Below are positions 5,895 to 39,705 of a stretch of DNA of 64,000 nucleotides, in pieces. Below the pieces are notes generated by a model, which worked only from the letters and a program-made list of their open reading frames with translations, ran no database searches and was not told the DNA's origin. Source of the stretch: Bacilli bacterium (GTDB lineage Bacteria > Bacillota_I > Bacilli_A > RF39 > UBA660); the NCBI GenBank assembly GCA_045541255.1, contig JAZQIU010000006.1, positions 43,663 through 107,662 of the forward strand. The letters are read 5' to 3'. Each line of letters begins with the position of its first letter. Position 1 is the first letter of the stretch. The translations under genes and the position numbers were made by a program.

Positions 5895-5930
5895 AAAAAA
5901 GAGTTGTTATAATTTAACAATTCTTTTATT
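5895..5930 (-). terminator. parB terminator (palindromic, can act on both strands).
   Basis: Minus-strand hairpin aagaattgtta/taacaactctt followed by TTTTTTTATTT, immediately after the parB stop. Confidence 0.45.
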
Positions 5931-6945
5931 TTTCTATTTTAATAATTATTTGATATAAATCTTCAAAGTCGTAATCTTCAGTTTCTATTTGGAAACCAGC
6001 ATCTTTGATTTCTGTTTCTATATCTTTTAGAGAATTAATAACTGAGTTTAAATCTCCTGAAATTATTCTTTTTTTAGTTTCTTTTACTTCTTCTTTTGGT
6101 TCTTCTATATCTTCTATTTTAAATTCTTCAGCTGTAGGAATATCAAATATTTCATATTTATCTTGTAGTGTTTTTTTAGAATCTATTATTAATTGTGCTA
6201 TATCATCATTTTCTACAGTTGGTTCATTGTTATTAAAATCTAATGTTTCTATTTGATTTAATAAATTTTTATTTGTATCATTGTTTAATATATCAAATCT
6301 AGATGATGTTCCTGTTGATTCTGTAGATTCTGTTTCTTTATTTAAAACCTTTTTAATTTCAGCATCTAATTGTCTTACTGTATATCTATTATCAATAATT
6401 TTATTTAACATATTAATTTGATCATCTTTATCACTTAATTGTAATAAACTTCTTGCATGTCTTTCACTTATTTTTTCATTCATTAAGGCATCTTGAACTT
6501 CTTCAGTTAAGTTTAATAATCTTACTTTATTTGCTACTGAAGATTGAGATATACCTAATCTTTTTGCTAAAACTTCTTGAGTTAAATATCCTCTATCTAA
6601 TAATTTCTTATATGATTTTGCTTCTTCTATTGCAGAAAGATTACGTCTTTGTAAGTTTTCTACTAACGCTACTTCAGCTGATGCGTTATCATCTAAGTCA
6701 GCAATAATTGCTGGAACTTGATTTAATCCTGCAATTTGACTTGCTTTATATCTTCTTTCTCCTGCTATTATTTCAAATTTATCATTTGCTAATTTTCTTA
6801 ATACTAATGGTTGAATTATTCCGTGTTCTTTAATAGACATCGCTAACTCTTTTAATGCGTTTTCATCAAATGTTAATCTTGGTTGAAATCTATTTGGAAT
6901 AATACTTTCTACATTTATATATTGAACGTTTGGTTCTAATTTCAT
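5926..6945 (-). CDS. parB: ParB/Spo0J-family partition protein (339 aa). No adjacent parA/soj.
   Basis: ParB N-terminal box (PNRFQPR...GIIQPL...GERRYKAS), HTH (LTQEVLAKRLGISQSSVANKVRLL) and an acidic C-terminal region. It sits next to rsmG as in the Firmicute gidB-noc-soj-spo0J locus. Confidence 0.8.
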   Translation of the reverse strand: MKLEPNVQYINVESIIPNRFQPRLTFDENALKELAMSIKEHGIIQPLVLRKLANDKFEIIAGERRYKASQIAGLNQVPAIIADLDDNASAEVALVENLQRRNLSAIEEAKSYKKLLDRGYLTQEVLAKRLGISQSSVANKVRLLNLTEEVQDALMNEKISERHARSLLQLSDKDDQINMLNKIIDNRYTVRQLDAEIKKVLNKETESTESTGTSSRFDILNNDTNKNLLNQIETLDFNNNEPTVENDDIAQLIIDSKKTLQDKYEIFDIPTAEEFKIEDIEEPKEEVKETKKRIISGDLNSVINSLKDIETEIKDAGFQIETEDYDFEDLYQIIIKIEK

Positions 6946-10965: not shown

Positions 10966-11067
10966 AGCACACCACTCCATAATGTATTATAGCACATACT
11001 TTACATTATTTAAACATAAATAAATTTACAAATTATTTCCCGGGAAATAATTTTATTTTATTTACAT

Positions 11068-11117: not shown

Positions 11118-11146
11118 AAAAACGTCAGCTATTTTTGACGTTTTAT
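11118..11146 (-). terminator. jag terminator (palindromic hairpin with a T-run on both strands).
   Basis: aaaacgtcag-ctattttt-gacgtttt, followed by T-runs on either strand. Confidence 0.5.
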
Positions 11147-11755
11147 TTACTTATTTAATTTTATAACAACATGTCTGTTTGGTTCTTCACCTTCACTTAT
11201 AGTTGAAACTTTTTTATTATTAGATAAAGTATTATGAATAATTCTTCTTTCATAAGAATTCATATTATCTAACTTTACATCAACCTTTGTTGTTATAACT
11301 TCTCTAGCTATTCTTTTGGCTAATCTTTCTAATTTCTTTTCTTGATTTTCTTTATAATTCTCTACATCTAATATTATATGTGGATGAATTCCATATTTAT
11401 TACTTAACATTTGTTTTACTATTACCATTAATGCTGATAATGTTTTGCCATCTTTACCTATTAAAATTGAATTATTATCGCTATACATCTTTACACATAT
11501 TTGTGTATCTCTAATTTTAGATTCGAATGTTACTTCTAATCCCATAAGTTTAGTTAATTCTAATAGATATTCCTTTACATAATTTTGTATATCAGTTAAT
11601 GTGTAAACTTTTATTTTATAACTACTTTTCTTTAGTAAACTACCCTTTATTTCTTCTTTTGTAATTATTACATCATCTTGAGTTAAATTAAGACTTTGTA
11701 AACTTGTGTCAATTAACTCACTCAAATTTTTTCCTTCGAATTCTTTTACTACCAT
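11147..11755 (-). CDS. jag: Jag/KhpB RNA-binding protein (Jag_N, KH and R3H domains).
   Basis: C-terminal R3H (YERRIIHNTL); KH-like core; conserved position after yidC. Confidence 0.7.
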   Translation of the reverse strand: MVVKEFEGKNLSELIDTSLQSLNLTQDDVIITKEEIKGSLLKKSSYKIKVYTLTDIQNYVKEYLLELTKLMGLEVTFESKIRDTQICVKMYSDNNSILIGKDGKTLSALMVIVKQMLSNKYGIHPHIILDVENYKENQEKKLERLAKRIAREVITTKVDVKLDNMNSYERRIIHNTLSNNKKVSTISEGEEPNRHVVIKLNK

Positions 11756-13269: not shown

Positions 13270-13400
13270 ACGTTGATATGTGGAAAAAATATTAACCTGT
13301 TAATAACAATTTGTGGAAAATGTGGAAAAGTGATGTTTTCTCTTTATTTAAGGGTATTTAAATGTTTATAACTATGTGGAAATGTTGTGGAAATTAAAAA
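13270..13400. promoter_or_regulatory. oriC upstream DnaA-box cluster (rpmH–dnaA intergenic region).
   Basis: Five TGTGGAAAW motifs (the complement of the low-GC DnaA box TTTTCCACA) at 13278, 13312, 13321, 13375 and 13386, in an AT-rich 300-bp spacer. Confidence 0.6.
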
Positions 13401-13483
13401 TATTTATATTTCATGCTTTCTTTTTCAACAAAAGTGTTTTAAAATATTCTTAGTTACAAAAATAATCTTGAAAGCGGGGTGTT

Positions 13484-14830
13484 TTGATGGATGGTAATTT
13501 TTCTTGGAATGATTTTTTAAATATTATAAAATCTAAATTATCTAGCGTTTCATATGATACTTGGTTTAAAGATACTAAGCTTTCAAAGATTACTGAGGAT
13601 TCTATAAGTATTGAAGTACCTATGAGTTTTCATAAAGACTTTTTAAATAAAAATTATTATGAACTTATTGATAATATAATTACTAGTATTACAGGTAAAA
13701 GTTATGATATTAACTTTGTAGTAGAGGAGGATATTGTTAATAATGATATAGAAATTAACAATATTGTTCAAACGAAGTCTAATAACTTTCAATCAAATCT
13801 TAACCCACAATATACATTTGAATCATTTGTAATAGGGGATAGTAATCGATTTGCTCAAACTGCTGCTGTTGCAGTTGCTGAACAACCAGGAAAAGTGTAT
13901 AACCCTTTATTTATTCACGGAAAAAGTGGACTAGGGAAAACTCATTTAATGCATGCAATAGGAAACTATATTGTAGAAACTACAAATAAAAAAGTTTTGT
14001 ACGTTACAAGTGATAAATTTATATCTGATTTTATAGGAATAAATAGAAAAGATACTGAAAATTATGATGTAATAGAACATTTTAAAGAAAAATATAGAAA
14101 TATTGATGTTCTAATTATTGATGATATTCAATTTTTAGGTGGAGCTGAAAAAACTCAAGGAGAATTTTTCCATACATTTAACACTTTATATGATGCTAAT
14201 AAACAAATAATTATTAGTTCAGATAGATCTCCAGATGATTTGAAACTCTTAGAAGATCGTTTAAGAACTAGATTTAGATGGGGATTAACAGCAAATATAT
14301 TCCCACCTGACTTTGATTTAAGGTGTAAGATACTTAAAGATAAGATGTCTGGTTTGGAAGGAGCTAAATTAATAAAAGATGATGTGATAGAGTATATAGC
14401 TAATAATTGTGAAAGTGATGTTAGATATTTAGAAGGTTCTATTAGAAGATTATTTGCTTATGCTGCTATGTATAGTCCTCCAGAAATTAATTTAGACTTT
14501 GCAATAGAGGCTTTAAAAGACTATTTTGGTTCTTCAGTATATTCTAATAGTAATATTTCTAAGATTCAAAAAGCAGTTGCTGATTACTTTAATATTACTG
14601 TTGAAAACTTAAAAAGCAAGAAAAGAACTGCGGATATAAACAATGCAAGGCAAATAGCAATGTATCTATGTAGGATGATTACAGAGGAAACAACAACTAG
14701 AATAGGGTTAGAATTTGGTAATAGAGATCATTCAACTGTACTACATGCTATAGAAAAAGTTAGTAAAGATGTCAAAAATAATGAAGATTTAAAACATAAA
14801 TTAAATGAAATTAAGAGTAAAATAAATTAA
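13484..14830 (+). CDS. dnaA: Chromosomal replication initiator DnaA (start may be the ATG at 13487).
   Basis: AAA+ Walker A GKSGLGKTHL; box VII; C-terminal DNA-binding domain (RQIAMYLCR...EFGNRDHSTVLHA). Confidence 0.95.
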   Translation: MMDGNFSWNDFLNIIKSKLSSVSYDTWFKDTKLSKITEDSISIEVPMSFHKDFLNKNYYELIDNIITSITGKSYDINFVVEEDIVNNDIEINNIVQTKSNNFQSNLNPQYTFESFVIGDSNRFAQTAAVAVAEQPGKVYNPLFIHGKSGLGKTHLMHAIGNYIVETTNKKVLYVTSDKFISDFIGINRKDTENYDVIEHFKEKYRNIDVLIIDDIQFLGGAEKTQGEFFHTFNTLYDANKQIIISSDRSPDDLKLLEDRLRTRFRWGLTANIFPPDFDLRCKILKDKMSGLEGAKLIKDDVIEYIANNCESDVRYLEGSIRRLFAYAAMYSPPEINLDFAIEALKDYFGSSVYSNSNISKIQKAVADYFNITVENLKSKKRTADINNARQIAMYLCRMITEETTTRIGLEFGNRDHSTVLHAIEKVSKDVKNNEDLKHKLNEIKSKIN

Positions 14831-14957
14831 TAATGTGGAAAACTTTAAAGATATAAACAATGTTTTTTCTAGATGAAATCGAAGTTTTATTAAGTTATAA
14901 ACAATTTGAACATATATAATAATAATATGTTAATAAATAAAAGAAAGAAGGTATATT
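14831..14957. promoter_or_regulatory. dnaA–dnaN intergenic region: downstream half of a bipartite oriC (DnaA box at 14835-14843, AT-rich DUE-like stretch).
   Basis: The TGTGGAAAA box immediately follows the dnaA stop. Extremely AT-rich sequence follows. Confidence 0.4.
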
Positions 14958-16173: not shown

Positions 16174-16626
16174 ATGAAAGATTATGAAATATCTAAAGAT
16201 ACTTTAGCGGTTATACCAGTTGGTGAAAAGAAAAGTAAAGTTATAGAAAAAGATTGTAGTTTCATAATAAATCATAGTCCTAATAGAGTTATGGATGATA
16301 GTTGTAAATATTATGGAAGTTCTATGGATGGTAGACAAAAAGGTACTACTAATTTAACTGGTATAAGTTATAAAGCACCAATAATAGTTCAAGAAGAAGG
16401 AAATATTATATTTTTTCCTACTAGTTCACCACGATTAAAAAAATGTTGTTGGGTATCTTTAAATAATATAGATTCTTATTATTATGATTATGCTCGAAAA
16501 ACTTGTGTTATTGTTTTTGATAATAATGAAAAAATAGAATTTGATATGTCATATTGTGTTTTAAATAATCAAATTTTAAAATCTCATAGATTAGAGTCTG
16601 TAATTAATAAAAGAAAGGCAAAATAA
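16174..16626 (+). CDS. comK: ComK-family competence transcription factor homolog (150 aa).
   Basis: Aligns by eye to B. subtilis ComK: VIEKDCSF (IIEKDCVF), SCKYYGSS..GRQKGT (SCRFFGSS..GRKAGT), IIFFPTSS (IFLFPTLSS), CCWVS (CGWIS). Strong RBS GGAGGTGAGG. Confidence 0.65.
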   Translation: MKDYEISKDTLAVIPVGEKKSKVIEKDCSFIINHSPNRVMDDSCKYYGSSMDGRQKGTTNLTGISYKAPIIVQEEGNIIFFPTSSPRLKKCCWVSLNNIDSYYYDYARKTCVIVFDNNEKIEFDMSYCVLNNQILKSHRLESVINKRKAK

Positions 16627-19753: not shown

Positions 19754-22336
19754 ATGAGAGAAAATGAAGAAAAGTTAGAAATTACTCAAGAAGAAAGCGA
19801 AATAATGGAAGAAATTATTGAAGCAGAAGAAACAGAAGCTAGTGAGGATGAAAGTAAGCCAAGTTTCAGTGGGTATTTTCACGAAAGAGATAGATTAGCA
19901 GAAAATAACATTGTTAATGAAGTTGAAACATCATTTTTAGAGTATTCTATGAGTGTTATTGCATCTCGTGCTTTACCTGATTTAAGAGATGGTTTAAAAC
20001 CTGTTCATAGAAGAATTTTATGGTCTATGTATGAATCTGGATATACACCTGATAAACCTCATAGAAAATCAGCTACAACAGTAGGATACGTTATGGGGCA
20101 TTACCATCCACATGGAGATTCTTCAATTTATGAAGCAATGGTAAGAATGGCACAAGATTTTAATCAACGTTATTTATTAGTTGATGGACATGGAAACTTT
20201 GGTAACATTGAAGGTGATGGAGCAGCAGCAATGCGTTATACAGAATCAAGATTATCTAAACTTTCATTAGAATTGTTAAGAGATATTAATAAAGATACTG
20301 TAGATTTTGATCCAAACTTCGATGAAACTCAAAAAGAACCTAAAGTTTTACCTTCCAGATATCCAAATATATTAGTTAATGGTACTATGGGTATAGCAGT
20401 TGGTATGGCAACAAATATTCCGCCTCATAATTTAGGAGAAGTTATTGATGGATGTGTTGCTTATATAGATGATCCTACAATTGATACATTAGGTTTAATG
20501 AATTATATAAAAGGACCAGATTTTCCAACTGGAGGTATTATTTTAGGTAATTCAGGTATAAAACAAGCATATGAAACTGGTAAAGGTTCTATAACAATAA
20601 GAAGTAGAGCAACTATAGAGGAAGTTAAAGGGCATCAATGTATTATAATTAATGAAGTTCCTTATGGTGTTAATACTATGGAATTAAAAAATAAAGTTGC
20701 TGAGTTAGTACATAATAAAATTATAGAAGGTATTAGTGATTATCATACAGATTTAAAAGATGGTGTAAAGATAACTATTACTTTAAAGAAAGATGCTAAT
20801 GCTCAAGTTGTATTAAATAATTTGTATAAACATACTAATTTTCAAACTTCTTTTGGTATAACACTATTAATGTTAGATGGTTTAACGCCTAAAACATTAG
20901 GTTTAAAGGATATTATTTCAAAATATATTGATCATCAAAAAGAAGTAATTATTAGAAGAACAAGATTTGATTTAAAGAAAAGTGAAAACAGAGTTCACAT
21001 ATTAGAAGGTTATAAAATAGCATTAGATAATATTGATGAAGTTATTAAAATTATTAAGGGAGCCGATACTGATCAAATAGCACGTGAGCAATTAATGAAA
21101 CGTTTTGGTTTAAGTCAAATTCAAGCTGATAGTATTTTAGAATTAAAATTACGTAGATTAACAGGTTTAGAAAGAAATAAGATAGAGGAAGAACTAAATA
21201 ATTTACTTAAATTAATTGAAGAATTAAAAGCTATTTTAGCTAGTGAACAAATGGTTCTAGATATTATTAAGAAAGAATTATTAGAAGTTAAGAATAAATT
21301 TGCAGATGAACGTAGAACTTCAATAGATATGACAGCAATTGATTATATTGAAGATGAATCTTTAATTCCTCAAGAAAATATAATAGTTACGTTAACAAAC
21401 AAAGGATATATCAAACGTTTGTCCGCTAATTCTTATAAAACTCAACATCGTGGTGGTGTAGGTGTAAAGGGAATGTCAACTAATGAAGAAGATTATGTCG
21501 ATCATATGATCAATTTATCAACCCACGACTATTTATTAATATTTACAAATAAAGGAAAAGTTTACAGAATGAAAGGTTATGAGATACCTGAGTTCAGTAG
21601 ACAAGCAAAGGGTTTACCTATCATAAACTTATTACAAGTTGAAAAAGATGAAGTTATCAACAGTCTAATTAAAATGTCACCAGAAGAAGAATCGAAGTAT
21701 TTAGTATTTGGTACTAAGAAAGGATTTATAAAAAAGACATTAATTAGCGAGTTTGAAAACATTAGAAATAGTGGTAAAATTTGTATTTCTTTAAGAAGCA
21801 ATGATGAATTAATAGGTGTAAAAAAATCTACTGGTTGTGACTATATAATGATGGCATCTACAGAAGGACGTATGGCAGTATTTAATGAAGATGAAATAAG
21901 AGTAATGGGTCGTACAGCTTCAGGAGTTAGAGGAATTAATTTAAATGACGCTGATTGTGTAGGATTAGAAGTAGTTACATTAAACGATAATATATTAATA
22001 GTAACTAGAAATGGTTATGGAAAGAAAACTCTTGTAAATGAATTTAGAACTACAAAACGTGGTAGTAAGGGTGTTAAAGCCTTAAACATTACAGAAAAAA
22101 ATGGTCCTTTAGTAGCATTTAAAATTATTGAAAAAGAACAAGATTTAATGATTATAACTAACTCTGGTATAATTATCAGGCTATCATTAGATCAAATTAG
22201 CCAACTAGGACGAGTTACACAAGGTGTTAGATTAATAAATTTAAAAGATAAACAAGTTGTTTCTACTATAAGTATTGTAGATAAAGAAGATGAAGAATCA
22301 GAAGAGTCAAAAGAAGAAGAGATTAATAATTATTAA
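19754..22336 (+). CDS. gyrA: DNA gyrase subunit A.
   Basis: AAMRYTE active-site region; GyrA box [10 protein letters not shown]; acidic C-terminal tail. Confidence 0.95.
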
Positions 22337-22347
22337 TCTCTTTTTTA

Positions 22348-22363
22348 TGTTTCACGTGAAACA
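22348..22363. promoter_or_regulatory. parS site 1 (TGTTTCACGTGAAACA, perfect 16-bp palindrome).
   Basis: Exact match to the Firmicute parS consensus tGTTNCACGTGAAACa. Followed by a TGTGGAAAA DnaA-box-like motif (22369-22377). Confidence 0.75.
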
Positions 22364-22460
22364 TTGAATGTGGAAAAGTTTAGTATAATATAAAAAACAT
22401 TTGTTAAAAAAACTATTTTATAAGAATTATTGTTAATAAAATAACAATATTATAATTTAA

Positions 22461-22476
22461 TGTTTCACGTGAAACA
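22461..22476. promoter_or_regulatory. parS site 2 (identical TGTTTCACGTGAAACA).
   Basis: Second perfect copy, 113 bp from the first, again followed by TGTGGAAAA (22484-22492). Confidence 0.75.
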
Positions 22477-22493
22477 TTAAATATGTGGAAAAC

Positions 22494-22522
22494 TTGAAAA
22501 CATTATATTGAAATGATAGAAT
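22494..22522 (+). promoter_or_regulatory. Promoter of the SRP RNA gene.
   Basis: -35 TTGAAA (22494-22499), 17-nt spacer, -10 TAGAAT (22517-22522); predicted TSS near G22529. Confidence 0.45.
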
Positions 22523-22528
22523 TATATT

Positions 22529-22600
22529 GTGCAATTAATTCTGTTATAAACTGGTCAGGACGGGAACGTAGCAGCCATATTAATAAGCATTAATGTGCAC
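22529..22600 (+). ncRNA. ffs: Small (4.5S-type) signal recognition particle RNA.
   Basis: Domain IV core GGUCAGG-ACG-GGAA-CGU-AGCAGCC matches the E. coli 4.5S GGUCAGG-UCC-GGAA-GGA-AGCAGCC motif (GNRA tetraloop plus symmetric loop). 5' GUGCAAUUAAU pairs with 3' AUUAAUGUGCAC. T7 terminator follows. Confidence 0.6.
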
Positions 22601-22620
22601 TTTTTTTATGGAGAAAAGTT

Positions 22621-23088: not shown

Positions 23089-24705
23089 ATGGATTATAAA
23101 GTATTTTATAGAAAATATAGGCCTAAAAACTTTAATGAATTAGTTGGTCAAGATAGTATTAAAGATATATTGGTTAACTCAATTAAATTAAATAAAATAG
23201 CTCATGCTTACATATTTACAGGGCCTAGAGGTACTGGAAAAACGAGTACAGCAAAAATTTTTGCTAAGACTTTAAATTGTATAGATAATAATAATGGTCT
23301 TTCATGCGATTTATGTGATATGTGTAAATCTTATAATGAGTCAGCCGATATTATAGAAATTGATGCTGCAAGTAATAATGGTGTAGAAGAAATTCGTTCT
23401 TTACGTGATAGTGTTAAAATAGCACCGTACAATTCTAAGTATAAGGTATATATAATAGATGAAGTTCATATGTTGTCTAATAGTGCTTGGAATGCATTCT
23501 TGAAGACTTTAGAAGAACCTCCAAGACATGTAATATTTATTTTAGCAACAACTGAAATAAATAAAATTCCTGATACAGTAATGTCTAGATGTCAACGTTT
23601 TGACTTTAGTAAAATTTCTCAAAATTTGATGTTAGAACACTTGTCAAATATATGTAAAAAAGAAAATATTAAAATTACTGATGAAGCTTTGAATGAAATT
23701 TCTAAATTGTCAAATGGTTGTCTAAGAGATGCATTAAGCTATTTGGATAAGATATCTAAATATAATGTTGAAATTACAGTAGATTTAATAGAAGAAAATT
23801 TTGGTATTTTAAATAATGTAAAATTAGAAAATTTATTTAATGCTATAGATAAAGGAAATATAAAAGAAATTAATAAGTTGTTAGATGAAATAAGTGTCAG
23901 TGGTATAACACCTTTAAATTTTATCAATGAATTTGTAGAGTTTTTATTAAACAAAATAATTAATGGTGAAACTAATAAAGTAAACGATATTAAAGATTTA
24001 ATATACAAATTAAATAATTTAATAATTAATTTTAATTCTGTTGTAAATCCTTTTACACTTATAAAAGTAGAACTTATTTCTTTAAATTATTTCCCGGGAA
24101 ATAATTTTGTGAATATTTCCCATGAAAATGAAAAAGTTGTAAATGATAATGTAAATGTGGAAAAAAATAAAGTTTTAAACAATGATATTTTGGTTGAAGA
24201 AATTAATAAAGGTGTACGAGAAGAAATTAAACAAGAAGAAACAGAAAAATCTAGTATTAACTTTGATAAAATAAAACAAATAAGAATAAATAATAGTTTT
24301 TCAGGTGCATCTAAAGATGTTAAGGTGGATTTCATAAATAAATGGAAAGAATTTTTAAATAAATTAAATATAGATAATGATTATAATATATTGGGATATG
24401 TTGAAAATGCTAATATTGTTGTATCTTCAAAAACAAATACGATGTTTGCTTTTGAAAAAGAGAGTGAATCATTATTATTTAACGCAAATATAAGTGTTAT
24501 AGAAGATAAGTTTAATAAATTAAATAATTTAACTTATAAATTTATTTCCCTTTCTAATGAAGAATGGAATGTGGAAAAAAGTAATTTTATCAACAATAAA
24601 GATAAAAAATATGAATATATTGAAGAAATTGTTGAAGAAGAAAGTTTTGAAGCTAAGGATTTAGCAGAAAATATATTTGGAAATGATATAATTGAAATTA
24701 GATAG
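23089..24705 (+). CDS. dnaX: DNA polymerase III tau subunit (DnaX).
   Basis: Walker A GPRGTGKTS; Walker B IIDEVHMLS; Zn-module CxxC...CxxC; sensor SRCQRF. Confidence 0.9.
   Translation: MDYKVFYRKYRPKNFNELVGQDSIKDILVNSIKLNKIAHAYIFTGPRGTGKTSTAKIFAKTLNCIDNNNGLSCDLCDMCKSYNESADIIEIDAASNNGVEEIRSLRDSVKIAPYNSKYKVYIIDEVHMLSNSAWNAFLKTLEEPPRHVIFILATTEINKIPDTVMSRCQRFDFSKISQNLMLEHLSNICKKENIKITDEALNEISKLSNGCLRDALSYLDKISKYNVEITVDLIEENFGILNNVKLENLFNAIDKGNIKEINKLLDEISVSGITPLNFINEFVEFLLNKIINGETNKVNDIKDLIYKLNNLIINFNSVVNPFTLIKVELISLNYFPGNNFVNISHENEKVVNDNVNVEKNKVLNNDILVEEINKGVREEIKQEETEKSSINFDKIKQIRINNSFSGASKDVKVDFINKWKEFLNKLNIDNDYNILGYVENANIVVSSKTNTMFAFEKESESLLFNANISVIEDKFNKLNNLTYKFISLSNEEWNVEKSNFINNKDKKYEYIEEIVEEESFEAKDLAENIFGNDIIEIR
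24084..24107. repeat. 24-bp perfect palindrome AAATTATTTCCCGGGAAATAATTT, copy 2, inside dnaX (encodes ...LNYFPGNNF... in the tau linker).
   Basis: Read directly; identical to the copy at 11068-11091. Preceded by the in-frame heptamer T_TTA_AAT (24081-24087). Confidence 0.9.
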
Positions 24706-31760: not shown

Positions 31761-32234
31761 ATGAATAATAATTTATTTAAGAAAAGAATTGATGAGTTAG
31801 GAAGAATTGTAATTCCTAAACAAATACGAAATACTTTTAAAATAAAAAATTTTGATGAATTAGAAATGTTCGTTGATAAAGATAGTATTATATTGAAAAA
31901 AAGTATTGGTATTGAAATGTATAAAGAAAAGTTAGAAAGATTGTTATTGTTTATAAAAAAATATGTTGATTTTGATATTTTAATTACTGAAAAACAAAAA
32001 GTTATAGTTTCTACAAAACAAGAAATCAAGAGTAATGATGAAATAGTTATAGAAAATATTGAGGGAAATATCAGTATAGTAGTAAAAGATAATGATAAGT
32101 ATAATGTTTCTTTTTTGCCAATAATAATTGATAGTAATAATATTGGAGAACTTTATTTTATAAATCAAGATAAAAGTTTAGATGATAATATTCAAAAACA
32201 AATTAGAGAACTAATTATTAATTTAATAAATTAG
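31761..32234 (+). CDS. spoVT: AbrB/SpoVT-family transcriptional regulator (SpoVT-like; N-terminal swapped-hairpin domain plus a C-terminal domain).
   Basis: N-terminus IDELGRIVIPKQIRNTFKI resembles AbrB/SpoVT (VDELGRVVIPIELRRTL). Sits after mfd as spoVT does in Bacillus and Clostridium. Confidence 0.6.
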   Translation: MNNNLFKKRIDELGRIVIPKQIRNTFKIKNFDELEMFVDKDSIILKKSIGIEMYKEKLERLLLFIKKYVDFDILITEKQKVIVSTKQEIKSNDEIVIENIEGNISIVVKDNDKYNVSFLPIIIDSNNIGELYFINQDKSLDDNIQKQIRELIINLIN

Positions 32235-35582: not shown

Positions 35583-35634
35583 GATAAAATGTTATATTTT
35601 GTCTTTTTTTTTATATAATTAATTGGTGATATAT

Positions 35635-36408
35635 TTGGAATTACAAATTGGTGATTATGTTAGTAGAAATAGTTATAATAATGATACTATTTTTAAAATA
35701 GTTGATATAAAAAATGATGTTGCTATTTTAAAAGGTGTTGATATACGTTTATTTGCAGATAGCGAGATAAATGATTTAGTTAAATGTGATTATGAAAATA
35801 AAGATGAAGAATTAATTGATTCTATTATGATTAGGGAAGATTTGGATAGAAGTGAATATTTTTATTTACCTGCCAAAGTACTTCATATAGATGGAGATAA
35901 AGATTACTTAAACAGATGTTTAGAGTTTTATAAAAAAGCTAATATTTTAGCTGTTGGTGAACATATAAAAGAAGCTGAATTATATAATGCAGTTCCTAAA
36001 TTGTTACGAAAATATAAACCTGATATAATGATTATTACAGGGCACGACTCTATTAATAAATCAAAAGATATTAAGGATATAAATAATTATAAAAATTCTA
36101 AGAATTTTGTTAAGGCTGTTTTTCAAGCTAGAGATTACGAAAAAAGTCATGAAAAATTAGTTGTTATTGCTGGAGCTTGTCAAAGTGATTACGAAGCTTT
36201 AATTAAAGCTGGAGCTAATTTTGCATCTAGTCCTAAAAGAATTAATATTCATGCATTAGATCCAGCAATAATTGCAGTTAATTTAGCTTTAACAGAAAAA
36301 GGGACAGAAATTGACTTGTTAAATCTTTTGGATAAAACTAAATATGGAAAAGATGGTATTGGAGGTCTTAAATCAACAGGTATGATGTATGTAGGTTATC
36401 CTAGATAA
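35635..36408 (+). CDS. yabG: Sporulation-specific protease YabG homolog (TTG start).
   Basis: N-terminus LELQIGDYVSRNSY...ILKGVDIRLFADSEINDLV aligns with B. subtilis YabG (MQFQIGDMVARKSY...ILHGDEVRLIADSDFSDLV). Confidence 0.7.
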   Translation: MELQIGDYVSRNSYNNDTIFKIVDIKNDVAILKGVDIRLFADSEINDLVKCDYENKDEELIDSIMIREDLDRSEYFYLPAKVLHIDGDKDYLNRCLEFYKKANILAVGEHIKEAELYNAVPKLLRKYKPDIMIITGHDSINKSKDIKDINNYKNSKNFVKAVFQARDYEKSHEKLVVIAGACQSDYEALIKAGANFASSPKRINIHALDPAIIAVNLALTEKGTEIDLLNLLDKTKYGKDGIGGLKSTGMMYVGYPR

Positions 36409-39028: not shown

Positions 39029-39193
39029 ATGACATTTAAGCCTAAGAATACAAAGGTGAAGGTTCCTACTACGTATAAATCTATTTATATTAAAGAGGAA
39101 TTGGTTAAAGAAATAGAAAAGATTGCTAGAGACAACAATACTTCTTTTAATAATGTTGTAATAAGTATGATAGAAGAATGTTTAAAGAAATAG
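39029..39193 (+). CDS. Small ribbon-helix-helix-like DNA-binding protein (54 aa).
   Basis: Manual ORF MTFKPKNTKVKVPTTYKSIYIKEELVKEIEKIARDNNTSFNNVVISMIEECLKK (beta-strand then two helices); RBS AGGGTGGGTGA. Not in the track because it is under 60 aa. Confidence 0.4.
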   Translation: MTFKPKNTKVKVPTTYKSIYIKEELVKEIEKIARDNNTSFNNVVISMIEECLKK

Positions 39194-39201
39194 GTGAGAT
39201 A

Positions 39202-39705
39202 ATGGGACTAAGTGTGTTTAAAGATAATAAAATTGATGATACTGTTTTAGAGCCTAAATTAAGTGAAATTAGAGAAGAAGGAAGAAAAAAAGAATTAGAA
39301 AAAAAAGTTATAGAAATTTGTGAGCACATAATTTTAACTAAAGATTCTTATAGAAAAACAGGGAAAATATTTAATGTTAGTGCAGTAACAGTAAAAGATT
39401 ATTGTGAAAGATTTTCAAAGTTGAAACCTGATAGGTATGAAGAATTAAAAAAGGTTATAAAATCTAATGCAGAACCTACTATTCAAGATGAAAATGTAAG
39501 AGTGAGAGTTTTAGAAAATGCTAAATTATTAGTAAGTGGAAAAACTTTAGAAGAAATCTCTTCAGATACTGGTGTTGAATATTGGGTTGTATATCGTGAT
39601 ATAACAAACAGATTAGAAAAGATTGATAAGGATTTGTATGCTCAAGTTAATATGATTTTAAAATCACGTACTCAAGCTAATTTAAATAGAGGAACAAAAA
39701 AGTAA
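39202..39705 (+). CDS. Tandem SpoIIID-like HTH protein (two SpoIIID-type domains).
   Basis: Both halves match the SpoIIID pattern (K/R-xIxI...TK..R...K.F.VS..TV.KD..ER....PD...E.K.I): KKVIEICEHIILTKDSYRKTGKIFNVSAVTVKDYCERF... and VRVLENAKLLVSGKTLEEISSDTGVEYWVVYRDITNRL... Confidence 0.45.
   Translation: MGLSVFKDNKIDDTVLEPKLSEIREEGRKKELEKKVIEICEHIILTKDSYRKTGKIFNVSAVTVKDYCERFSKLKPDRYEELKKVIKSNAEPTIQDENVRVRVLENAKLLVSGKTLEEISSDTGVEYWVVYRDITNRLEKIDKDLYAQVNMILKSRTQANLNRGTKK

Follow-up and report, generated by a model that had tools for sequence, protein, structure and literature searches.

Paired parS sites with adjoining putative DnaA boxes in the gyrA–SRP-RNA spacer of an uncultured Bacilli bacterium

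Introduction

ParB/Spo0J and Noc both restrain DnaA-dependent initiation of chromosomal replication, either indirectly, via Soj, or, in the case of Staphylococcus aureus Noc, by a route that is still unexplained. The spacer between gyrA and the SRP RNA gene of an uncultured Bacilli bacterium raises the question of whether segregation and initiation might also be linked directly on the DNA. A first-pass annotation of this locus described two parS sites, each joined to a DnaA-box-like motif and a promoter-like element, and proposed that ParB loading sites are physically coupled there with DnaA binding close to oriC. It is already known that parS sites lie near oriC, that DnaA boxes occur outside oriC, and that DnaA acts at the Caulobacter centromere. 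Canonical parS sites joined one-to-one to DnaA boxes, and additionally to Noc-binding sites (NBS), were not found in the literature searched, and reports beyond that literature are possible. Binding sites of segregation and initiator proteins that stand base-to-base and are kept across genera would suggest that the control of replication is linked with segregation on the DNA itself. The locus is examined here in its surroundings of 64 kb (the window, i.e., the whole stretch of DNA that was analysed) and in related and distant metagenomic contigs.

The origin region

The window covers the region around the replication origin of a Bacilli bacterium with 24% GC; the nearest GTDB record is the metagenome-assembled genome (MAG) JAZLAK010000140, whose GyrA C-terminal domain is 96% identical. 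The GC skew switches sign at 12-14 kb of the window. The left block consists, in this order, of prfA, rpoE (delta subunit), a penicillin-binding protein gene (assigned by eye from its translation), and a gene without assigned function. A minus-strand run comprising noc-like, rsmG, mnmG, mnmE, jag, yidC, rnpA, and rpmH genes comes next, followed by dnaA (13484-14830), dnaN, a comK-like gene, recF, gyrB, and gyrA (19754-22336), while the SRP-RNA gene, tadA, dnaX, ebfC, and recR lie 3' of gyrA. The DnaA protein encoded in the window is a full-length orthologue (TIGR00362, 506 bits).

The spacer of interest is delimited by two RNA features. gyrA ends in an intrinsic terminator hairpin (22314-22347, plus strand), an inverted repeat with a 15-bp stem that overlaps the stop codon and is followed by a T run; in the RNA fold, the stem pairs AAGAAGAGAUUAAUAA with UUAUUAAUCUCUUUUUU, and the 171-nt region has a z score of -7.1. 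The terminator directly abuts the first parS site, and the same terminator-then-parS layout is also seen in relatives. At the other end, the small bacterial SRP RNA gene (ffs; approx. 22523-22609, plus strand) scores 53.6 bits with Rfam family RF00169, for which the gathering score is 40, and a search of the region against Rfam returned the SRP RNA only. The terminator, the Rfam match, and a distance of approx. 9 kb from dnaA confirm the position originally given for the sites, between gyrA and the SRP RNA gene near oriC.

Two perfect parS sites

Exact copies of the 16-bp palindrome TGTTTCACGTGAAACA lie at 22348-22363 (parS1) and 22461-22476 (parS2), 113 bp apart from start to start, just as they had been reported; together with its flanking A and T, parS1 forms an 18-bp palindrome. 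Both sites have 0 mismatches to the consensus TGTTNCACGTGAAACA, and they are the only parS-like matches in the 64 kb, even when up to 3 mismatches are allowed (the chance expectation for the window is 0.01 at up to 2 mismatches and 0.24 at up to 3). The pair is located 8.9 kb from the dnaA start and is thus origin-proximal. The description of the two modules as an imperfect direct repeat also holds: the sequence around parS is repeated over 30 nt with 90% identity at a spacing of 113 and then over 25 nt with 76% identity at a spacing of 115, the shift in spacing being due to a 2-bp indel between parS and the 9-mer that follows it.

The locus was compared with those of nine related contigs of identical synteny, which were collected as contigs of GyrA homologues 79-97% identical to that of the window; a scan of genome contigs with the GyrA C-terminal domain had returned two close relatives only. 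In each of the nine, the gyrA–SRP-RNA spacer holds 2-4 perfect parS sites. Across the 10 clade loci (256 kb), 26 parS sites are found at up to 1 mismatch, all of them in this spacer; 25 of the 26 are perfect, and position -1 is A and position +1 is T, likewise at 25 of 26. Perfect orthologues of parS1 are present in the two closest relatives (L001 and L026), and parS2 is kept in every relative as the SRP-RNA-proximal parS. The parS sites are very probably real.

The parS-adjacent 9-mers resemble oriC DnaA boxes

The sequence TGTGGAAAA follows parS1 at a distance of 5 bp (22369-22377, plus strand; box 1) and parS2 at a distance of 7 bp (22484-22492, plus strand; box 2). At both places this 9-mer, which reads TTTTCCACA on the other strand, has one mismatch to the DnaA-box consensus TTATCCACA. 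It occurs 10 times in the window, against 0.87 copies expected, on the plus strand every time, and four of the copies are located in the two spacers that flank dnaA. In the rpmH–dnaA half of oriC (13279-13394, plus strand), TGTGGAAAA is found at 13279, 13312, and 13321, and TGTGGAAAT at 13375 and 13386, in the same orientation as the parS-adjacent boxes. In the dnaA–dnaN half, TGTGGAAAA, followed by C, stands at 14834-14842 (plus strand), immediately 3' of the dnaA stop codon.

Moreover, the 9-mers next to parS vary as those of oriC do. In relatives, the position after the dnaA stop codon is occupied by TGTGGAAAA, TGTTGAAAA, TGTTGATAA, or TGTGTATAA, and orthologous oriC positions in the nine related contigs interchange TGTGGAAAA, TGTTGAAAA, TGTTGATAA, TGTGGATAA, TGTGTATAA, TGTTAATAA, and TGTGGAAAT; the variant spectrum of the parS-adjacent 9-mers matches that of these orthologous boxes. 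In L001 and L026, the perfect consensus TGTGGATAA (i.e., TTATCCACA) stands at the orthologous position of box 2, and box 1 is invariant while the 5-bp spacer before it reads TTGAA, TAGAT, or TAGAG. Because the same 9-mers with the same variants are found at oriC, and because the nearest relatives carry the perfect consensus, the reading of the parS-adjacent motifs as DnaA boxes is accepted, and TGTGGAAAA can be taken, from these comparisons, as the putative preferred oriC box type of the organism. In this respect the first-pass annotation was correct: the type is identical to that of the boxes in both oriC spacers.

The origin also contains a lone inverted box, TTTTCAACA, at 13422-13430, approx. 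55 bp before dnaA starts. This box, the sole oriC box of opposite orientation, is kept in six of eight relatives (as TTTTCCACA in L027).

The parS–box pairing is maintained in close relatives

A 9-mer of this family is located 0-10 bp downstream of 21 of the 26 clade parS sites, in the same orientation, against 0.24 expected. For TGTGGAWAA, a class that includes both boxes of the window, the corresponding count is 12 of 26 against 0.045 expected, and the 26 sites are phylogenetically related, so that Poisson P-values overstate their independence. Inverted boxes, or upstream boxes at the mirror position, accompany none of the 26 clade sites. The box is absent at four of the sites, mostly where parS directly follows the gyrA terminator.

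In the three closest genomes, the parS and box sequences do not vary, whereas the intervening 5 bp and the following 80 bp have diverged. Within the clade, the box is retained at gaps of 0, 1, 3, 4, 5, 7, and 10 bp, and the information content anchored on parS is at background beyond +11. The turnover of the flanks, the keeping of the box at seven different gaps, and the end of the information at +11 argue for selection over mere inheritance. The boxes are thus probably real and kept next to parS by selection, as judged by these patterns of conservation.

Variants of the TGTTGAAAA type contain the -35 hexamer TTGAAA, and such 9-mers were considered as pure -35 elements. This is feasible in L028, in which the 9-mer is the -35 of the SRP-RNA promoter, but not at the TGTGGAWAA sites, and the idea was rejected.

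A less closely related contig (L002, 73% identical) has a tandem array of slightly degenerate parS sites without boxes that runs into the contig end. At 11142-11279, from the gyrA terminator to the end of the contig, it comprises six or more 27-bp repeats in tandem, all of which contain TGTTCCACGTGAAACT; the array may be a true parS minisatellite or the result of assembly collapse.

Distant lineages carry parS–box–NBS triple units

A metagenome scan for parS-N(0-30)-TGTGGAWAA returned at least 120 contigs, some of them related to one another. The histogram of gaps from 0 to 30 bp among the matches listed has an excess at 0-14 bp, which is suggestive of a general enrichment and is not a calibrated enrichment test. 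Below 30% GC, a gap of 1 bp is dominant (6 of 12 contigs among the matches listed). In particular, units of the form parS-T-TGTGGATAA are found, among the matches listed, in the gyrA–SRP-RNA spacer of L052, L039, L081, L088, L095, and L140; in L081, units are also present 3' of tadA. The GyrA proteins of these distant low-GC lineages are approx. 60-70% identical to that of the window, and in the contigs below 30% GC the units lie between the 3' end of gyrA and SRP-RNA-tadA-dnaX, wherever the fragment extends that far. The occurrence of the boxes at the same locus at approx. 60-70% GyrA identity indicates that the gyrA–SRP-RNA centromere arrangement is old.

In L052, L039, L127, and L095, the unit is extended to TGTTTCACGTGAAACA-T-TGTGGATAA-A(A)TT-ATTTCCCGGGAAAT, i.e., a parS, a perfect DnaA box, and a perfect NBS within approx. 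44 bp, the NBS lying 3-5 bp from the DnaA box. These triple units are present in 2-5 copies per contig, approx. 270-480 bp apart and with solitary NBS interspersed, in arrays between gyrA and the SRP-RNA gene (L052 209-1760; L095 940-1470; also in L039 and L127). The units of these four contigs and of L088 are inverted relative to gyrA; thus, their polarity with respect to replication is not universal. Another arrangement is found in contigs with 44-57% GC, in which a consensus DnaA box is sandwiched between two parS sites (parS, 15-19 bp, box, 1-2 bp, parS), namely at L142 3007-3070, L152 8313-8460, and L089 1036-1100. These contigs are unrelated, and the L142 sandwich is located just upstream of a parA gene.

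The Noc orthologue and the source of ParB

The sole ParB-family gene in the window (5926-6945, minus strand) encodes a Noc orthologue, with a TIGR04285 score of 298.9 bits against a cutoff of 315. Compared with PDB entries, the protein scores 215 bits with Noc (7NG0) and 162 bits with Spo0J (1VZ0). It carries Q/K/N/R at the four positions of specificity for NBS versus parS (Q173, K179, N184, and R201), position 184 being N and not the near-invariant K. It has been reported that Q173 and R201 plus one permissive lysine suffice for NBS specificity (PMC7383237). The Noc orthologue is accordingly predicted, from its residues, to be NBS-specific. As the local ParB-family protein, it was considered as a reader of the parS pair and rejected in view of its orthology to Noc, its NBS-type residues, and its own perfect NBS sites. 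The protein starts 7 residues before the conserved core, where Bacillus subtilis Noc has approx. 30 residues, and it has an acidic-rich C-terminal extension of approx. 135 aa. In B. subtilis Noc, the N-terminal stretch includes a membrane-targeting helix.

Perfect NBS (ATTTCCCGGGAAAT) are located at 11035-11048, in the mnmE–jag spacer, and at 24089-24102, inside dnaX and 1.6 kb downstream of the parS pair; both positions are kept in all relatives that cover them. The two cores sit in identical 24-bp palindromes, AAATTATTTCCCGGGAAATAATTT (11031-11054 and 24085-24108), and the one in dnaX imposes two codons, CCC and GGG, that are rare in a genome of 24% GC. dnaX also contains a copy of TGTGGAAAA at 24156-24164, 53 nt downstream of its NBS. 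This copy is kept in several relatives (L001 7128, L026 14510, L028 14295) and could reflect a coding constraint (V-E-K) or another pairing of NBS and DnaA box.

For ParA, neither the deviant Walker A motif KGGxGK[ST] nor a Pfam match was found in the 64-kb window. A parS-type ParB and SMC were likewise not found in the window by motif and Pfam, and there is no parAB operon nearby. A ParB that reads these parS sites would therefore have to be encoded elsewhere, and the Soj/ParB–DnaA rationale of the first-pass annotation, though it may still hold, is left without local support. Its proposal of a physical coupling between parS and DnaA boxes thus stands in part: the juxtaposition is kept across species, as functional coupling predicts, whereas the promoter element of module 1 and the Soj-based part are not supported.

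A candidate centromere with parS–DnaA-box units

On balance, these sequence comparisons lead us to prefer, with moderate confidence, the explanation that the gyrA–SRP-RNA spacer is an origin-proximal centromere with selected parS–DnaA-box units. ParB, encoded outside the window, would nucleate at parS and build a partition/SMC-loading complex. Each parS is abutted on its origin-distal side by an oriC-type DnaA box, at which DnaA, via domain IV, would bind beside the ParB dimer. With the adjacent boxes, a few DnaA molecules would sit within the partition complex or on its border, and the boxes might act as a small initiator-binding locus, similar to the DnaA-box clusters (DBCs) of B. subtilis or to datA, by which the availability of DnaA is tied to the state of the centromere. 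Box 2, at -45 to -37, may in addition render the SRP-RNA(-tadA-dnaX) promoter DnaA-responsive. The sequences show the sites, their identity with the oriC boxes, and their conservation, polarity, and enrichment; from these we infer the binding of ParB and DnaA, as well as any regulatory consequence.

A DnaA-sink or coupling mechanism is suggested here only tentatively and is considerably less certain than the parS sites and their boxes. The number of boxes speaks against a sink: there are two boxes only in approx. 125 bp, far fewer than in a B. subtilis DBC, and 2-5 per spacer in relatives, which falls short of a dense cluster of the DBC type or of a sink such as Escherichia coli datA. The locus is not classed as a DBC, though it may work like one. 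A rigid contact between ParB and DnaA is disfavoured because the spacing ranges from 0 to 10 bp and the polarity is reversed in sister lineages (L052 and L088). The absence of ParB, ParA, and SMC genes from the window, the clade sites that have no box, the box-less array of L002, and the -35 hexamer within TGTTGAAAA-type variants also count against the preferred explanation.

It is more speculative still that the parS–DnaA-box units (and the parS–DnaA-box–NBS units) might serve as a cis landing pad of approx. 45 bp, at which ParB or Noc clamps control DnaA, or vice versa, without ParA/Soj. If true, such a landing pad would be a compact, ParA-independent route for coupling replication, segregation, and division, and such coupling is still mechanistically unexplained for Spo0J in B. 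subtilis and for Noc in S. aureus. The units offer a short, defined DNA substrate for the study of purified proteins with respect to cooperativity, mutual exclusion, roadblocking of clamps, and DnaA sequestration. Moreover, a single-locus centromere in the gyrA–SRP-RNA spacer across a group of uncultured gut Bacilli aids the annotation of origins and centromeres in MAGs.

Promoters and alternative roles of the boxes

The sole credible promoter of the spacer is that of the SRP RNA (22494-22522, plus strand). It has the structure TTGAAA-17-TAGAAT with an extended -10 TG (10 of 12 matches; TTGAAA at 22494-22499 and TGaTAGAAT at 22514-22522) and hardly varies in L001 and L026. A single base pair separates the end of box 2 from its -35; the box covers approx. 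-45 to -37 relative to the probable start, and the centre of parS2 falls near -60. The promoter probably also feeds tadA-dnaX, as only 11 nt separate the T run of the SRP-RNA gene from the tadA ATG. The second module had been thought to drive the SRP RNA gene; a real promoter indeed stands beside it, but downstream of box 2, with TTGAAA as its -35, and does not use TTAAAT, so that the TTRAAT motif loses its role as a -35. The first module had been described as lacking an obvious transcript; it has neither a sigma-70 call nor an Rfam match. The -35-like hexamer assigned to that module did not withstand comparison: no promoter was called, and neither its TTGAAT, in place of which L001 and L026, the two closest relatives, have TAGATT and TAGAGT, nor its TATAAT is conserved. 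A promoter or transcript of module 1 was rejected on these grounds. The inter-module spacer (22378-22460) diverges fast, being much less conserved in the alignment than the parS and box blocks, and contains no conserved promoter, RNA, or ORF; the only small ORFs, three of 25-26 aa, read through parS or the SRP-RNA gene and were discarded.

The position of box 2 brings up the possibility that the boxes are transcriptional operators, by which DnaA would regulate the SRP-RNA-tadA-dnaX-ebfC-recR promoter, parS doing no more than sharing a short spacer with them. A box-C-TTGAAA or box-C-CTTGAT layout is found in the window, L001, L026, L027, L032, and L034, the downstream genes are replication genes, and a role of DnaA as a transcription factor is well established in B. 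subtilis, e.g., at sda and dnaA. However, box 1 and the remaining upstream boxes stand beside parS copies that lack a conserved promoter; in L031 and L033, the box is followed by the SRP-RNA promoter only after 20-30 bp; the units of L052, L039, and L088 are inverted and located up to 1.5 kb from the SRP-RNA gene; and those of L081 recur after tadA. The operator reading is plausible for box 2 only, and as an account of the units in general it is unlikely.

The strict polarity of the clade, in which the box is on the SRP-RNA side every time, would also be expected if DnaA by parS were a one-sided roadblock or insulator for CTP-loaded ParB clamps, or stood between ParB and Noc clamps in the triple units. 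Spreading would be biased toward gyrA/oriC and the SRP-RNA promoter would be shielded. The boxes adjoin the 18-bp palindrome, most often at a gap of 1 bp, and lie exactly between parS and NBS in L052, L095, and L127, and the sliding of ParB is blocked by DNA-bound proteins in vitro. This reading, attractive for the triple units, is awkward for tandem arrays, in which each box would trap the clamps loaded at the next parS; in addition, ParB can bypass obstacles via dimer-dimer recruitment, and the polarity with respect to gyrA is reversed in sister lineages. The roadblock reading is unlikely, and somewhat less probable than a role as operators.

An improbable alternative is that a unit of approx. 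30-35 bp has been duplicated locally, the box-like 9-mers being functionless passengers at parS. The window modules are, after all, direct repeats (90% and 76% identity), and relatives have 2-4 copies of parS, with larger tandem duplications seen in arrays. Yet passengers would not be expected to behave as the boxes do: the 9-mer persists while the sequence beyond it is randomised, it is retained at each of the seven gaps, its substitutions are confined to the spectrum of oriC boxes, and perfect consensus boxes are found at 60-70% GyrA identity. A non-DnaA reader of the 9-mer, which would make the 9-mer, for instance, part of an asymmetrically extended ParB site or a box of the Spo0A type (TGTCGAA-like), is very improbable, for although the organism has sporulation-type genes and TGTGGAA is one base off the 0A box, the 9-mer is the very one that is clustered on either side of dnaA, several lineages have the exact universal consensus TTATCCACA in its place, and a symmetric ParB dimer gives no cause for a one-sided, variably spaced extension.

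Relation to known systems

The preferred explanation, a centromere with selected parS–DnaA-box units, has several partial precedents. In Caulobacter crescentus, segregation is enabled by DnaA, which binds to DnaA boxes within the parS locus (Mera et al. 2014, as summarised in the review PMC6399470). As in the spacer described here, the DnaA boxes lie inside the centromere locus, a few kb from the origin, which supports the idea of initiator–centromere communication in cis. Caulobacter belongs to another phylum and relies on ParA-driven polar translocation, whereas here the boxes lie 0-10 bp from individual parS sites with a fixed polarity and the window contains no ParA.

The parS sites themselves resemble other origin-proximal parS of Firmicutes, such as those of B. 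subtilis Spo0J/ParB (TGTTNCACGTGAAACA), in that the palindrome is exact, within 10 kb of oriC, and present in several copies. In B. subtilis, parS sites load ParB-CTP clamps and SMC. Unlike there, all copies of the present locus are in one spacer, boxes abut them, and no parAB operon is nearby. Extra-oriC DnaA boxes near the origin are also shared with B. subtilis, in which oriC-proximal DBCs restrain initiation and their loss is synergistic with the loss of spo0J; thus, DBCs and ParB affect a common process (Okumura et al. 2012, PMC3245932). The B. subtilis clusters are larger and lie apart from parS, whereas the boxes of this locus are single and interleaved one-to-one with parS.

Noc of S. 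aureus restrains DnaA-dependent initiation by an unexplained route, and weak Noc peaks flank dnaA at DnaA boxes (Pang et al. 2017, PMC5540599). Here, too, a ParB-family CTP clamp and DnaA are concerned, and the triple units of sister lineages put an NBS 3-5 bp from a box. The S. aureus study describes no such composite cis-element, and in the window the dnaX NBS lies 1.6 kb away and is not fused to the units. In rctA/parS2-B of Vibrio cholerae chromosome 2 and in cisII/cisMP of Deinococcus, centromere sequences are also bound by the initiator of the replicon (PMC3688505, PMC7671480). These cases have in common with the present locus that the sites of partition protein and initiator overlap or adjoin in cis; they concern secondary replicons with plasmid-type initiators or iteron-like repeats, whereas here a canonical parS and a DnaA box of the primary chromosome are combined.

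Further genes of the window

Genes of the sporulation type are present at 31761-32234 (SpoVT/AbrB-like), 35623-36408 (YabG peptidase), and 39178-39705 (SpoIIID-like), and BofA is found in L033; the lineage, reduced and of 24% GC, may thus be able to sporulate. A ComK-family gene (16174-16626, plus strand; PF06338, 136 bits) is located between dnaN and recF, and its position is kept in eight related contigs.
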